Shown here: positions 9,545 through 63,902 of the stretch, one piece after another
How the letters are laid out: each line of letters starts with the position of its first letter
Position numbering within the stretch: position 1 is the first letter of the stretch
DNA from: Octopus sinensis
Taxonomy: Eukaryota
NCBI RefSeq assembly: GCF_006345805.1
Contig: NC_042998.1
Coordinates: 138,198,001-138,262,000, forward strand
Reading direction: 5' to 3'
Length of the DNA stretch: 64,000 nt
Translations under genes and position numbers: made by a program
The notes under the pieces: model-generated
Told to the model about the DNA's origin: nothing
The model's database searches: none
Seen by the model: the letters and a program-made list of their open reading frames with translations, nothing else

Positions 9545-10021
9545 TCTTTCGTCTTGGTTTCAGTCATTAGACTGCGGCCATAGTGGGGAATTTTAGTCGC
9601 ACTAATTGACCCCAGTACTTATCCTCTTTTTCAGCTTGGTACTTATTCTATAGTACTCTTTTGCCAAACTGCTAAGTTATGGTGGTGGTGGTGGAGAACA
9701 CACACACACACACATATGTATGTGTATATATATATATATATCTATATATATATAATTATAGATATATATATAATATATAAAATATTATTAGAGACAAAAC
9801 CACTATTTTGCAAAACAAACAAGGAAAGACTTAATCAATACATAAAATTTTAATAAATATATACGAGGGGCTTCTTTCAGTTTCCGTCCCCCACATCCAC
9901 TCGCAAGACATTTGTCGGCCTAAGGCTATAGAAGAAGACACTTGTCCAAAGTACCATGCAGTGGGACTGAACCCAGAACCATGCGGTTGAGAAGCAAACC
10001 TCTTACCACACAGCCACGCCT
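9545..10021 (-). mobile_element. tRNA-derived CORE-type SINE (family A) with internal microsatellite
   Basis: Matches the better copies at 62505-62982 and 63391-63789. Confidence 0.85.
9775..9860 (-). mobile_element. Truncated copy of the 61229-61630 palindrome family, inserted in the SINE's (TA)n
   Basis: aatattattagagacaaaaccactattttgcaaaacaaacaaggaaagact..catataaaattttaataaat is nearly identical to 61234-61310. Confidence 0.85.
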
Positions 10022-12636: not shown

Positions 12637-13879
12637 CAGGGGTTGGACAAAATAATGGAAACACCTAGCATCATAGCATCATAATTTAAGAATATCTATA
12701 TAACCGTCAAAAGTTTATTTTTATGTTTTTTGATTTGTGTTCCTTAATATTTTTTGCTAAAATTGCTGTTTCTTTTCAGATATCATCAGAAAAAGGTAAT
12801 TAAAATTCATTAAAATGACAGATCTATCAGACTTTCAAAGTCCTTAAATTGTTGGTGCTCGTATGCCTGGCGCTAGCGTAACGAAAGCAGCCGAAATGTT
12901 TGGTATATCAAGAAGTACTGTCTCGAAAGTAATGACAGCCTTTGAGAAAGAGGGGAAAACCTCCTCGTCGAAACAAAACTCCGGAAGAAAACCAAAACTT
13001 TCAGATATGGACCGTCGGACTCTTACGCGAGTTGTTAGAAAGGATGACAAAAGTACAGCTCACAAAATTACTGCAGAGCTTAATGCACACTTCGAGAACT
13101 CAGTTTCCACAAAAACTATTCACCGAGAGCTGCACAAAGCCGGATTTCACGGGAGGGCTGCAATCAGAAAAGCACTACTTTCAAAAACAAACGTTGCAAA
13201 GCGTTTAGAACGGAGTAAAAATCTACAGAATTAGTCCCTAGAGCAGTGGAAGAATGTTATGTTCTCAGACGAGTCATCCTTTACCTTATTTCCGACCACC
13301 AGCCGAGTATACGTGTGGAGACAGCCAAAAGAAGCATTTGACCCAGACTGCCTTCTTCCAACTGTTAAACATGGAGGAGGATCTGTGATGATCTGGGGGC
13401 TATAGCTTGGAAATCCGTCGGCCCATTGGTTTCCCTCTTCATGGCAGAATTAATAGTCAAGACTATTTAAGCATTTTATCTGATCAAAGTCATCCTATGG
13501 TTGCGGAATTGTTACCGGAGGGAAACGCAATCTTTCAGGCTAATAATACACCAATTTACACAACAAAAGTTGTTACTGAATGGCACGGAACATCTAATCT
13601 GGCCATCACAGTCCCCAAATCTCAATATTATTGAACATTATGGTGCATTTTTAGAAAAACAAGTCAGGAGTCGATATCTTCCACCATCATCACTACAAGA
13701 ACTAGACACTGTCTAAGCTGAAAACTGGACAAAAATTCCTTTGGAAACAATTCAAACTTTGTAGGAGCCCGTACCTCGTAGAGTTCAAGCTTTAATTACT
13801 GCCAAAGGCGGTCCTACCCCATATTACAATAAATTTGTTTGAAATTTTAAGGTGTTTCCATTATTTTGTCCAACCCCAT
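12637..13879 (+). mobile_element. Tc1-family DNA transposon, near full length
   Basis: TIRs CAGGGGTTGGACAAAATAATGGAAACACCT (12637-12666) and AGGTGTTTCCATTATTTTGTCCAACCCC (13850-13877); TA flank on the left. Confidence 0.95.
12815..13827 (+). pseudogene. Tc1 transposase pseudogene
   Basis: MTDLSDFQ..HTH..SGRKPKLS; W.NVMFSDES; VKHGGGSVMIWG; IFQ..N.PI; WPSQSPNLNIIEH; GGPTPY; stops and frameshifts present. Confidence 0.92.
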
Positions 13880-39998: not shown

Positions 39999-40062
<64 letters not shown>

Positions 40063-40435: not shown

Positions 40436-41655
40436 TTATGTGTTCATATTGAGTTGGGGAAGATATTTATTGATAAAAGTTGCCTCTTTATTCATTCTTT
40501 GTTTTACTGAGGTATTCTGTGAACATTGATAGAAGGTGAAAATTAGGAAATTAGGATTAAGATTCCTAGCACACCGATCTATGTGCTCACTAACCTGTAT
40601 CTGTCTGTATTGTGAGTGGCGGATTTGTTCTTTGTGGAGAGTGGTTCTTCGATGGAGTGATATTCCTGTTTGGCCAATATAATTATTACCACACCCTAAG
40701 CATGTAATGGCATAGATTAGATTTTCCGAGGCACAGATGAAATTTGATTTGATCTTAAATATTTCACCTTGTTTAAAGTGGAATTCTGAACCCTCCAAAA
40801 GGTGGGAGCATGTACCACAGTTAGGTCGACCACATTTTTTCACTTTTGATTCTGTTCTTAATGGATATAGTCTTGCGCTGGTTAATATTTTTTTTCAGTG
40901 ATTTAGGTTGCATTTTGCTTTTGATAATTTTGTATGAGCTTAAAATTTTGTTCATTGTTTTATCTCCAGTGAGGAGGGGAAGATTTTGGGTGATAATGTT
41001 GAAAGCTTCGTTGTTTCTAGGGTTATGTGTGGAGATGTACGGGAGTATTTTTAAGTCTGGTTTAGTATTTCGGTTGACTTCCCTTAATGTTCGTATATCT
41101 ATTTCCATAGCTCGTTTAATGCCCTCATTTATTAATGATATTGGGTAATGTCTTTTGATTAGTATTGATCTGAGTTCAAGGAGTCTTCGTTCACGAGTAT
41201 AGGTGTCTGAAACTATGGTACAGATTCTTTTCGCTAGATTATAAGGTATATTAATTTTTATGTGTTTGGGGTGGCATGAGTTGAATAATAGGTATTGTTT
41301 AGAATCTGTGGGTTTATAAAAGATGTCTGTTTCGACGTGGTTATTGACTGTTTTAATTAGGCTGTCAAGAAAAGGGAGTTGTTTACTGCTGTGCTCCATG
41401 GTGAATTGTATGTTGCTATCAATATTGTTAAGCATTATTTTGAAATCGAGGAGTTTGTCCATGCTGTCTTTCCAAAGTATAAAGCAATCATCCGAATACC
41501 TCTTCCAGTTCTCCTTTAAATAGCAATGAAATGAGGTACCATATTTTTGTAGTGATGATTGATATAACTTAAGCTCCAGTGATTGCGAACCTTGTAATGG
41601 GTTACCATTACAAGGTTCGCAATCACTGGAGCAGCTCGGGTTCCAATTGCAGCAC
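40436..41655 (-). pseudogene. Penelope-like RT C-half plus GIY-YIG endonuclease
   Basis: AIGTRAAPVIANLVM; WKRYSDD; LPFLD; TDIFYKPTD..YL.F.SCHP; C..C..C linker; NLIYAITCLGC..YIGQT..R..H; LN terminus; frameshift near 40840. Confidence 0.92.
41573..41632. repeat. Perfect 28-bp-arm hairpin inside the RT coding region
   Basis: gctccagtgattgcgaaccttgtaatgg-gtta-ccattacaaggttcgcaatcactggagc. Confidence 0.95.
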
Positions 41656-42679
41656 TCAAATTCATCCTACTGAACAACTATTTCATGTTCGATACAGTTT
41701 ACTATCGACAAAAATGTGGAATTGCAATGGGAATGGAATTGCTACTCAAACTGGATTATCGTGGTTTGAAGCTTCTTTTGATCTTGTGTGTGCTATAGAA
41801 GCAAACGAAGTCGTTCGACCTGTTAGAAATAGTAACCGAATCTCCCGCAATTACAACCTGCTGTCTTAAAAAAGATGGATATTCCGAGGGGCAGAGATGC
41901 AATCTTAAATAAAGTATTTGAAAAATGTCTTCATGGTCACTCAGTCTGCTAGAAATAGAAGCCAAATTTTCCTTAAATTTCATCCTCTTGGTCATAGGTA
42001 GAATGTCTTTGATCACAGATCTTTTCGATTTGGGAATACCTATGGTAAAAACAACAGCAAAACGACAGTTGATAATGTTTGAATATTTAACTGAGTGTAA
42101 AATATTTCGTGGAAGTCATATATTGAATACTCAGAGCTTTGTCACTTGTATAGCTTCTCAGAGTAAGATGTTGCCACCGACCAAGCAAAACAGACTACTT
42201 ATCGTCTCCTATAAAATAGTTTAAATACCGTTATTATTATCCCTATCATAATATATGTTCTGATGTATGAATGTTTTACTGCATTTTAACAATATTTTTG
42301 ATGTGTAGTTGCTATGAACATAAATATATTTTATTATTTAAGCTAATGCGAGAAATCAATATTTAGTTTTTACAATGATTTTCATATTAATAATCATAAG
42401 GGCTATATGATTGAAATTTATCAAATCTTGATAAGTAATAGTAAATAGGAAATATAAAGGGAGAAAATGAAAAATAAAAAAAAAACATAAAAAGTATGCG
42501 TCAGATTATTACATATGAAATTGAGGAATATTGTTTATGTTCATTTATAATATACTTGATAGATTTGGTTTTTAACCTACAATATTAATATATAAATATA
42601 TTAAAATTACTGTAAAATTAAATAGGAAAGTAAAAATGTTTATTGTAATATAAATAGTAATATTGATTTCTTACATGGT

Positions 42680-47280: not shown

Positions 47281-48516
47281 CGAGGGGCGTTCAATAAGTA
47301 ATGCCCCTGACCCACTTCCCATAGCAGTAGAGCAACGAAACTTGGCACAGTTATTAGTCTTTTTCTACATAGAAACCACCCAGAGTTACGCATTTTCCCA
47401 TCGTTTGATGCAGCTCTGGAGACCGTTTTTGTAGAAGACCCCAGCTTGGTCCTCCAATCACGACGTGACTTCAGAAATCAAGGCTGCATCATCTGGGAAA
47501 CGCTTTCCTTTCAAAAACAACTTCATGGCTGGGAAGAGGTGAAAATCAGAGGGTGCAAGGTCAGGAGGCACACGAGTTGTGAACCGGAGCGTTGTCCTGC
47601 AGGAGGAGGATGCCTTTCCTGATCTTGCCCCGCCTCTTGATTTTGGTAGCTTCTCTTAAATTCCTCAAAAGTGAAGCATAATAGGCTCCTGTAATTGTGG
47701 TGCCCCTTGCCAGGAACTCTGTCATCACTACTCCGCCCTGATCCTAGAAGACTGTGAGCACGACCTTGCCAGCGGAGGGCTGCACCCTTGCCTTCTTTGG
47801 ATGAGGTGAGTCACGTTGCTTCCACTGCATTGACTGGGCTTTGGTCTCTGGATCATAGTGATGGACCCAGGTTTCATCCTGTGTAATCAGTCTTTTGAAA
47901 AATTTTGACTCATCTTCTTGGCACATCTCTAAATTCAACCTCGAGCACTCGACGCGTTCTTGCTTCTGGAAAGGTGTGAGCAACCTGGGAATCCATCTGG
48001 CAGACAACTTTTGGATATGCAAATGGTCATGAATGATAGTTTCCACGGACCCGGTACTAATCTTGACCTCATGGGCTATTTGGCGAATAGTTATGCGTCG
48101 ATCTTCCAAAATAGCAGCCTCAACTTGACGGACAGATGCCTCATCAATGGCAGAAGGGGGGCGACCAGATCTGGGAGCTGTTTCCACAGAGTTCCGACCA
48201 TGCTTGAATTCACGATGCCTGCGTTTTACAAGGTCATATGATGGGGCATCATCACCATAAGTTACTTTCATTTCATCAAAGGTCTCCCGCGGTGTGCGTC
48301 CTTTCAAATACAAAAACGGAATCACTGCTCGACACTGAACAGGCTCCATTTCACACTTGACTCGGTTCAAACACCTGTAAATCAGAAACCACAATTAATT
48401 CAGAGCTGTAATTTGCCACTTAATCTATAGAGATATAAATAATTGCACATGCAAAATTTCAGCTAGATCAATCAACTACAAGTGGGTCAGAGGCATTACT
48501 TATTGAACGTCCCTCG
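47281..48516 (-). mobile_element. Mariner DNA transposon, near full length
   Basis: TIRs CGAGGGGCGTTCAATAAGTAATGCC / GGCATTACTTATTGAACGTCCCTCG with TA on both sides. Confidence 0.95.
47340..48349 (-). pseudogene. Mariner transposase pseudogene
   Basis: MEPVQCRAVI..RSGRP..SARWIPRLL..ITQDETWVHHYDPE..SAGKV; downstream LLQDNA and PDLAPSDFHLF occur in broken frames. Confidence 0.92.
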
Positions 48517-60461: not shown

Positions 60462-61324
60462 GAAGAAGAAATTAAAAGAGATGTCGCAGAATCTTAAATT
60501 AATATGTAGATAGATGGCGTTGGCTGAAAATCAATTTACGAGCGATTTTCGAGAGAAAGAAACAAACTATTTAATCAATTAATTAAAAATATCAAAAATA
60601 TAAATGTTCAGAAGAAAAATAAAACAAAGACTATGACGAATGTGATAAATATTATGAATTTCATATAGATGTGGCTCTTTTTCTTGTTTGAGAGAAGTAT
60701 TGTGTAAAAATAAATACACACAGGTTAGCAAACAGCTCTATGTTTCTATGTTTGTGTGTGTGAATCATGTCCTTGTATATGTTAAGCACAAATAGCAGGT
60801 AAAACACACAAGACTAGGAATATTTCAAACATGAGTACAAATCTCTCCTCATCAGCTGTTCAATAAAGGTCAGGGCAATTTCGGCATATTAATCAACAAG
60901 ATTGCTCACTTCTGATAGAATTATAACAAATTCCACCAAGGAAAGATTTAATGAAGGCGATGTGAGGGAGCGATTGGCACAACGAGATTGGGCGACAGCA
61001 ATATACGAAAATTTTAAGAACAGTTAGATTACAACAAGCATTGAAATCTGTACGACAAGGATCGTGCGCGCTCACGGTGAGAATAGCAAATTTGAAAATT
61101 TATCTCAAGCCAATCCTTTGTTATTTCAAAAATTAGTAAGCCATCTCGTATTTATGTTTTAACAGCTTTTCTTTCTTTCTTTTTAAGTTAAACATAACAA
61201 GCCTATATACAATATATATATATATATATATAAAATATTATTCGAGACAAAACCACTATTTTGCAAAACAAACAAGGAAAGACTAATTAATACATAAAAT
61301 TTTAATAAATAGTCAAAAAAACCG

Positions 61325-61367
61325 CCACTACAATCGTTTCTTGTCTTGATCGACAATCTTCAGGTGG
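61325..61367 (-). ncRNA. Mirror copy of the hammerhead ribozyme
   Basis: Reverse complement of 61415-61457. Confidence 0.85.
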
Positions 61368-61414
61368 ACTTCCAATAATTCAGTGTCATAATTTGACACT
61401 GAATTATTGGAAGT

Positions 61415-61457
61415 CCACCTGAAGATTGTCGATCAAGACAAGAAACGATTGTAGTGG
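61415..61457 (+). ncRNA. Minimal type I hammerhead ribozyme, canonical core
   Basis: ccac-CTGAAGA-ttgtc(gatcaa)gacaa-GAAAC(gatt)GTA-gtgg; predicted cleavage after A61453. Confidence 0.85.
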
Positions 61458-61905
61458 CGGTTTTTTTGACTATTTATTAAAATTTTATGTATTAATTAGT
61501 CTTTCCTTGTTTGTTTTGCAAAATAGTGGTTTTGTCTCGAATAATATTTTATAATATTTTACTATAAAATCGATTTAATCATAAATCTGATTTTTTCCCT
61601 GTAAATTTGGATTTATTCCCTAATATTTATTATATATATATATATATATATATAGTCAACGAATTCCAGATAAACTATCTACCCCCAGATATATCTCTGC
61701 AAACAATAACTCTCTACTCAAATGGGCTATGGTACCCTCAAAATGACTAATATGAAACATCTTTAAATGTCTTTTCCAGGAGATGCTATTAAGTTAGACA
61801 TGGCTTGGTCCAATGCAGGCCGAATCCTATCCTAGTAGCTATGTATCTAAATATATATATATACGGGGGTGCATGTGTGTACATGCTTCAAAATTATTGT
61901 CAGAG

Positions 61906-62504: not shown

Positions 62505-63111
<607 letters not shown>

Positions 63112-63392: not shown

Positions 63393-63786
63393 CTCTCTTT
63401 TACTCTCTTTTACTTGTTTCAGTCATTTGACTGCGGCCATGCTGGAGCACCGCCTTTAATCGAGCAACTCGACCCCGGGACTTATTCTTTTGTAAGCCCA
63501 GTACTTATTTAATCGGTCTCTTTTGCTGAACCGCTAAGTGACGGGGACATAAACACACCAGCATCGGTTGTCAAGCAATGCTAGGGGGACAAACACACAC
63601 ACACGCATATATATATATATATATACATATATAAACGACGGGCTTCTTTCAGTTTCCGTCTACCAAATCCACTCACAAGGCTTTGGTCGGCCCGAGGCTA
63701 TAGTAGAAGACACTTGCCCAAGGTGCCACGCAGTGGGACTGAACCCGGAACCATGTGGTTGGTAAACAAGCTACTTTCCACACAGC

Positions 63787-63789
<3 letters not shown>
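63391..63789 (-). mobile_element. SINE family A, near full length
   Basis: Highly similar to 62505-62982; GGCACCTTGGGCAAGTGTCTT core; (GTAAAAGA)n tail. Confidence 0.92.
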
Positions 63790-63820
<31 letters not shown>

Positions 63821-63902
63821 CGCGCAGACATATACATACATACAAATGTACAAGAGTGTTATGCAATGTATAGCATGCATATAAAAGCAGACATGTAAAA
63901 TA

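Follow-up and report, generated by a model that had tools for sequence, protein, structure and literature searches.

The palindromic insert in the window (the whole 64,000-nt stretch of Octopus sinensis contig NC_042998.1 that was analyzed) is almost certainly a spliced retrocopy of the 5′ end of a Penelope-like element (PLE). The best overall explanation, which we regard as probable from the sequences compared, is that approximately the first 250 nt of a spliced PLE RNA would have been copied twice, with one cDNA primed on each strand of a (TA)n target.

The insert, its RNA template and its parent element

Positions within the element are given as p, where the window position equals 61381 + p. 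The two arms (61229–61388 and 61394–61553) comprise 160 nt each and are 100% complementary, which bears out the exact palindrome of the original prediction. The 5 nt described there as a loop do separate the arms, but they are not a spacer; they correspond to right-arm element positions 8–12, and at the joint the two arms overlap by 3 nt, the microhomology TCA. The right arm is ~77–80 nt longer than the left, close to the ~75 nt anticipated, and reaches a (TA)n tract. Such tracts flank the palindrome on both sides, and a unique target-site duplication was unreadable within (TA)n at this locus. No frame of at least 100 aa overlapped the insert in the window, in agreement with its predicted non-coding nature. 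When the right arm was compared with the genome, 40 of 1112 first-look candidates were scored, and among those, five other loci matched its 237 nt at 100%, supporting the very young age proposed for the insertion. The coordinates of the features are collected in Table 1. An older short-arm fragment of the same family, 94% identical, adjoins (TA)n at 9765–9859 (−) of the window. The window also contains Tc1/mariner transposase fragments detected by Pfam (12848–13234, +; 47744–48394, −) and two diverged copies of a common dispersed repeat (62511–63034 and 63398–63850), ~820–890 bp apart and broken by (TA)n.

Table 1. Features of the palindromic insert, in window coordinates
Feature	Position	Strand	Remarks
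Left (TA)n target tract	61212..61232	.	A few bases of overlap with the arm end (AT microhomology); same context at most family loci
Short arm, p13 to ~p173	61229..61388	−	Outer end is the putative proximal RT start; shared by 73/75 two-armed elements
Short-arm minimal type I hammerhead	61325..61367	−	Mirror of the + copy; predicted cut between 61329 and 61328
Head-to-head joint, 3-nt microhomology common to both arms	61386..61388	.	Joint varies between copies
Exon 1 remnant, p5–24	61386..61405	+	GTAAGT donor comes next in the parent (L182 7154–7176)
Exon 1/exon 2 junction	61405..61406	+	1828-nt L182 intron absent; mirrored at 61376/61377
Minimal type I hammerhead	61415..61457	+	Self-complementary stem III octamer (dimer type); predicted cut after 61453
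Exon 2 segment of the tailed arm, corresponding to the 5′ UTR of the parent ORF	61406..61553	+	
One-sided tail of ~80 nt	61554..61633	+	Between the putative proximal and distal RT starts; parent reaches the ORF ATG ~55 nt later
Right (TA)n target tract	61630..61654	.	

The arms join p24 directly to p25, and the 1.8-kb intron of the parent is gone. Moreover, the 5′ end of these stubs is fixed: parent upstream sequence was present in 0 of 54 complete-end matches, and both arms end at p2 in one copy (L261) and at an added G in another (L145). Exact matches to the spliced junction that were preceded by genomic upstream sequence numbered 20. Short-read contig depth, which is not copy number, fell from ~790,000 to ~27,000 across 61400–61380. 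Position p2 sits in TCACTT, which we take to be an initiator-like motif, and the fixed stub end is likely the transcription start. The genomic base before p2 is C, whereas ~8 ends, those of the two L145 arms among them, carry a G that is not accounted for by either arm or flank; the search pattern required a G, six unselected complete ends lacked it, and most of the G's lay in an ambiguous junction. We lean towards reading the added G as a copied cap. Since the arms consist of exon 1 joined to exon 2 from the likely transcription start, the template would be a spliced sense RNA, which the original prediction had overlooked. For this stub class, the spliced junction together with the fixed 5′ end contradicts the antisense template proposed for PLE palindromes (PMC3846280). 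The stubs are promoterless, and their haplotypes match parent exons. Assembled contigs from runs guessed to be RNA also contained parts of the unit.

The derivation from a PLE, which had been proposed, is supported by the recovery of an ~8-kb parent with a reverse transcriptase (RT)/endonuclease ORF. The link was found genome-wide in loci where matches to the ribozyme region (828 exact) are widely spaced, in pairs kilobases apart. In the parent, an acceptor ending in TTTTAG directly precedes p25, and exon 2, with the hammerhead and the tail, runs to the ATG. Downstream lie the ORF, with RT and a C-terminal endonuclease, and a long region with tandem promoter repeats, each of which ends in p2–24 and is followed by the GTAAGT donor. 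In L182, an 1828-nt GT-AG intron comes next, and then exon 2 again, ending in (TA)n. The donor and acceptor lie exactly at element positions 24/25 in L182, L235, L236, and others, and the repeat period is ~8.0 kb in L182 and L235 and 7.3 kb in L236. Promoter and exon 1 are tandemly repeated in the pseudo-LTR (pLTR; L182 4950–7800) with a period of 830–1020 bp, providing alternative first exons, one with a damaged donor.

Most parent copies are frameshifted, and the longest open frames are 859, 762, and 748 aa. The 859-aa frame, in L232, carries the YRDD motif of RT and a C-terminal VY..YIGST, and its first ~60 residues are unrelated. The parent protein had 469 relatives at E ≤ 1e-20, and Pfam gave no significant family for the L182/L184 protein pieces. 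The protein contains DKT, KWK in place of RWK (RWK/RWR in aligned relatives), the linker CTCRDKSNC (CxCX5C), and CYLC..E (CxxC before E); the CxH after N reads CRH in J183, L234, and L238 and CRN in L182 and L232. A pLTR hammerhead and (TA)n insertion are both present in the family. These protein motifs, the hammerhead, and the (TA)n target place the parent as a new family of the Hydra clade. The clade (PMC8557442) likewise has the C-terminal endonuclease, DKT, the CxCX5C linker, and the CxxC and CxH motifs, as well as a hammerhead near the 3′ end, the (TA)n target, an inverted 5′-truncated partner, and a one-sided tail. However, its listed families measure 1.1–3.0 kb, whereas the octopus unit is ~8 kb with a multi-kb promoter/intron region; a size below 3 kb is a tendency of the clade, not a defining motif. 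The tail is 30–40 nt in the Hydra clade compared with ~80 nt here, and the hammerhead of Hydra-1_Obim, a family already known from octopus, is a different one (PMC8557442 supplement).

Long asparagine-rich inserts lie between RT and endonuclease in L182 (2820–3330) and L232 and are missing from most relatives; N-rich inserts have been reported for Adineta PLEs (PMC3846280). The Pfam GIY-YIG route to the parent was rejected, as it led to Neptune-like families with other 3′ ends. A broken Neptune-like PLE in the window (40439–41666, −), with RT, a CxxC linker, a Pfam GIY-YIG match, and a (TA)n end near 40060, was also rejected as the parent, being unrelated to the palindrome family. Other Neptune-like PLEs (L093, L102, L064, L095, and L109), several of which contain long open frames as well as a separate ORF upstream, have pLTRs with a CCAAT/TATA-like promoter and a minimal hammerhead, and the L095/L109 family shows an apparent U3-A8 core variant, as read by eye.

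Origin of the two arms

A head-to-head inverted partner was present in 29 of the first 30 loci inspected. A partly selected set comprised 81 distinct elements, 75 of them two-armed; 73 of these 75 had one tailed arm (to ~p250) and one short arm (to ~p173), two tails were never seen, and the other two elements were irregular. Because this set was partly selected, 68 loci were sampled without selection, namely all those behind the first 100 of the 1167 exact spliced-junction matches. There, 55 of 68 loci were two-armed, with exactly one tail in 54/55 and two tails in 0/55. The remaining 13 included 12 single-armed copies, nine short and three tailed (three rows reclassified by hand). Extrapolation from 100 matches in 68 loci gives a lower bound of ~800 spliced loci. 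Genome-wide, exact matches numbered 1167 for spliced-junction arms compared with 608 for intron-acceptor arms, the latter pooling 3′-pLTR copies and unspliced cap-proximal copies. The one-tail rule also held in nine multi-kb inverted pairs, mostly intron-retaining, so the reaction seems general to the family.

The center is variable, with 29 distinct sequences among the readable junctions, mostly short microhomologies. The arms of one copy share subfamily variants: in 123 elements, 5 of 544 site comparisons were discordant compared with 168.6 expected for random pairing, although the diagnostic sites are linked and the comparisons are therefore not independent. The variable centers and concordant arms indicate that each insertion assembles its palindrome anew from a single sequence source. 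In L021, L192, L132, and L151, the center joint contains captured sequence, either unrelated or from the host flank, which suggests template switching during joining. In L191 (577–2792), an inverted pair of 2.2 kb, both arms carry ~700 nt of foreign sequence joined at the exon 2 acceptor, which might be a foreign exon that was spliced to this acceptor and retroposed. Sister palindromic or one-tailed elements with other hammerheads (L069 742–1250; L097 581–865 and 5764–6875; L063 55–415; L095 5007–5220; L105), most with a similar tail, are probably further PLE families.

In the mechanism that we propose, the template would be a spliced, probably capped, uncut sense mRNA, and a minority of templates would be pre-cut by the hammerhead. 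Reverse transcription would start at two internal sites of the cap-proximal pLTR, where the distal site gives the tailed arm and the proximal site the short arm, with one protein subunit per start site acting on a single RNA molecule or on RNAs from the same source locus. Both cDNAs would run to the RNA 5′ end, and microhomology would then link them head to head. At the 3′ pLTR, where the intron is mostly kept, this reaction would yield long, intron-retaining, promoter-bearing copies. Priming near the cap would accordingly leave dead stubs, and priming at the 3′ pLTR would give copies that bear a promoter. In LINE-1 twin priming, two cDNAs from opposite strands are joined by microhomology, giving a 5′ inversion. 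The proposed reaction resembles it in the opposite-strand cDNAs and their joining; however, LINE-1 twin priming is occasional, with variable internal priming and non-overlapping products, whereas in the octopus family it would be the rule, with a fixed second site and mostly overlapping arms.

The main alternative is that a single cDNA, running from the tail to the RNA 5′ end, folded back and copied itself, with the second arm trimmed at ~p173 and later rearrangements accounting for the exceptions. A cDNA 3′ end able to form a hairpin (−5.5 kcal/mol) would permit this; in the literature, self-priming has been suggested as the source of PLE palindromes (PMC3846280) and resolution by an endonuclease as that of the tail (PMC8557442). 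Fold-back would also explain the near-perfect arm concordance, which does not separate it from copying of one RNA. If the short arm was copied from the tailed cDNA, however, it should never hold more 5′ sequence than the tailed arm. Among the 55 unselected two-armed copies, the tailed arm was more 5′-truncated by at least 10 nt in 13, the short arm in 8, and the two were similar in 34, so that 13/55 copies violate this expectation. Furthermore, the arms are wholly non-overlapping in three copies: the tailed arm of L264 and that of L304 end at p172–173, exactly at the second (proximal) start, as in twin priming, and that of L306 ends at p188, leaving an inversion without a palindrome. The excess of short over tailed arms among single-armed copies also argues against fold-back, and its antisense-template version conflicts with the spliced junction and fixed 5′ end described above. 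Center junctions occur in mirror-image forms, the commonest in a ratio of 19 to 5 in the 81-element set and about 8 to 2 in the unselected sample; the existence of both forms speaks against a simple fold-back, whereas the skew runs in the direction that fold-back predicts and against dual priming. Deletion or inversion of the center after insertion could mimic both the asymmetric truncation and the mirror junctions. Taken together, the simple fold-back origin originally put forward is unsupported and, even with trimming and rearrangement, appears unlikely, and dual priming on one RNA probably fits better.

We tentatively extend dual priming to a general scheme, to which we give slightly less than even weight: PLEs would integrate by obligate asymmetric twin priming, in which a dimer on one sense RNA uses two fixed starts and primes both target strands. 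The cap-proximal spliced pLTR would then produce ‘strong-stop-like’ palindromes, the unspliced 3′ pLTR would rebuild the promoter, and copies starting at p73 would preserve in the genome the trace of in vivo cutting by a PLE minimal hammerhead.

Hammerheads, hairpin RNA and further alternatives

The + strand hammerhead consists of stem I (61415–61418 with 61454–61457), the core CUGAAGA (61419–61425), a 5-bp stem II (61426–61441), GAAAC (61442–61446), the loop GAUU, and then GUA, with the predicted cut after 61453, between p72 and p73. A motif scan of the window confirmed the two intact hammerheads predicted, one per arm, and gave one weak unrelated match (60855, −); the same scan of 1.92 Mb of shuffled window gave 0 matches. 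Rfam found no hammerhead family on the palindrome at E ≤ 1; the matches it gave were sub-threshold ones to miRNA hairpins. A single arm folded freely formed no hammerhead, and its stability was no better than that of shuffles (z 0.25–0.97). Since the motif is of the dimer type, the Rfam miss and the misfolding of a lone arm are both expected, and neither counts as support. The predicted dimer type is instead supported by the stem III octamer, which pairs fully with a second copy of itself (self-duplex of −5.8 kcal/mol). The G66A variant, in 16 of 174 arms, turns this octamer into a perfect palindrome, as it likewise is in the sister family L069. Thus, the intact core, short helix I, and self-complementary helix III of a PLE minimal hammerhead are all present.

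Arms whose match breaks at one base were classified by hand, and those starting at the cut site were counted. A break at p73 was found in 21 matches in 20 loci, of which 12 were true starts, nearly all preceded by T; the other 8/20 were substitutions or small indels. At the control positions, true starts were 2/8 at p75 and 1/14 at p66, with two further internal deletions uncounted at p66. This excess compares raw counts with those at two control positions under unequal one-base filters, and 2–3 of the 12 starts are ambiguous. We consider it somewhat probable, as far as genomic copies can tell, that a minority of templates was cleaved by the hammerhead in vivo.

At the palindrome's own locus, a modelled read-through RNA folds into a 160-bp hairpin (−274 kcal/mol) that would mask the ribozyme, in line with the original alternatives of a long dsRNA or a self-masking ribozyme. 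As the antisense arm comes first on either strand, both ribozymes at the locus would be masked, and the model makes the two hammerheads likely silent passengers. Splicing as a ribozyme off-switch was rejected, as the folding penalty was 3.0–3.1 kcal/mol in spliced and 3.5–4.9 kcal/mol in unspliced RNA. The same duplex might suggest that the host keeps or uses the hairpin, either as a dsRNA source for ADAR or Dicer or as a self-masking ribozyme switch, and the ~800 or more loci of this kind could supply dsRNA. However, five other loci are 100% identical to this copy, which makes it brand new, and the hairpin shape follows from the insertion reaction; since inverted pairs with a single tail are also found flanking multi-kb copies, the hairpin appears to be a by-product of insertion. 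Such a host role is therefore very unlikely.

Even less credit is due to the view that the whole palindrome is a non-autonomous MITE-, foldback-, or retrozyme-like element that spreads as one unit from master palindromes. In its favor are the large number of copies, the constancy of the outer ends, the recurrent center junction (19 copies), and some tandem arrays of whole palindromes (L022/L023), but it is largely refuted by the 29 different center sequences, by subfamily variants that occur in both arms and not in one, and by stubs that lack a promoter and match parent exons. A MITE or foldback DNA transposon, which has symmetric TIRs and is copied whole, was ruled out by the asymmetric ends, variable center, and spliced junction. 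A non-LTR retrozyme, built of head-to-tail tandem monomers, was ruled out since the copies are dispersed head-to-head pairs or singles, with a few tandem duplications of whole palindromes. Finally, an artefact of assembly or long-read fold-back is extremely improbable: long-read chimeras can create inverted duplications, and among the short-read contigs listed none spans the whole stretch, but the same asymmetric ends recur at dozens of loci, each with unique sequence on either side; in run X18, contigs connect the end of the left arm at 61388 with right arms that are truncated; and the sister family L069, which has another hammerhead, is built alike.

Relation to known elements and implications

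PLE inverted partners, tails, opposite-strand hammerhead pairs, and minimal hammerheads are already in print. The closest biochemical counterpart is the anole Poseidon protein PAc (PMC11167929), which nicks and extends both strands of AT-rich DNA, uses uncut RNA, has two internal RT starts that bound the tail, and is predicted to be a dimer. Both-strand priming, two starts, an uncut template, a weak hammerhead, and a predicted dimer are thus shared with the scheme proposed here. However, PAc belongs to another clade, and in vitro it showed no coupling of strand and start, in contrast to the near-obligate use of one of each in the octopus copies; it also gave no reads at the cut site, where some octopus genomic copies start. 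Metazoan PLE minimal hammerheads (PMC4209133) are alike in their 4-bp helix I, weak palindromic helix III, and dimer logic. The same paper describes opposite-strand hammerhead pairs 100–700 bp apart in Schistosoma, as here, which it leaves unexplained, and an intron end adjoining helix I in D. virilis, as in the octopus parent; it gives no evidence of in vivo cleavage for metazoan PLE hammerheads in the part cited.

Penelope elements of Adineta vaga (PMC3846280) also have head-to-head palindromic junctions, a tail on one inverted pLTR, and a TATA/initiator in the pLTR, but self-priming on an antisense template was proposed for them, whereas the octopus family points to a spliced sense RNA. Animal non-LTR retrozymes (bioRxiv 10.64898/2026.07.22.740005) are similarly short, non-coding, and PLE-related with a type I hammerhead; they are head-to-tail tandem repeats, in contrast to the dispersed head-to-head octopus pairs with a known coding parent. 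The spliced start-stub class is not described in the main passages and the part of the supplement of PMC8557442 covered here. A literature search, largely confined to the main texts of open-access papers, found no paper on spliced start-stubs or twin priming in PLEs. In that search, no precedent was found for dominant spliced start-anchored stubs, near-obligate one-of-each start use, or copies from the cut site.

The palindromic locus itself is most likely an inert by-product. The family to which it belongs bears on points left open in the PLE literature (PMC8557442, PMC3846280, PMC4209133, and PMC11167929, in the parts cited), namely the origin of the inverted ends and tail, the survival of the intron, and cutting in vivo. 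Since there are hundreds of near-identical copies and a recoverable parent, each of these questions can be addressed by counting within a single genome and by experiments on a defined RNA, and the family supplies exact predictions for the start, the splice junction, both priming sites, and the cut site. Intron-free copies outnumber intron-retaining ones, yet they lack a promoter; priming at the 3′ pLTR would offer an explanation of how introns are retained that differs from the selection argument of PMC2377424 (as given in the part cited). If obligate asymmetric twin priming is true, the inverted ends, one-sided tail, and intron retention of PLEs would be explained together.
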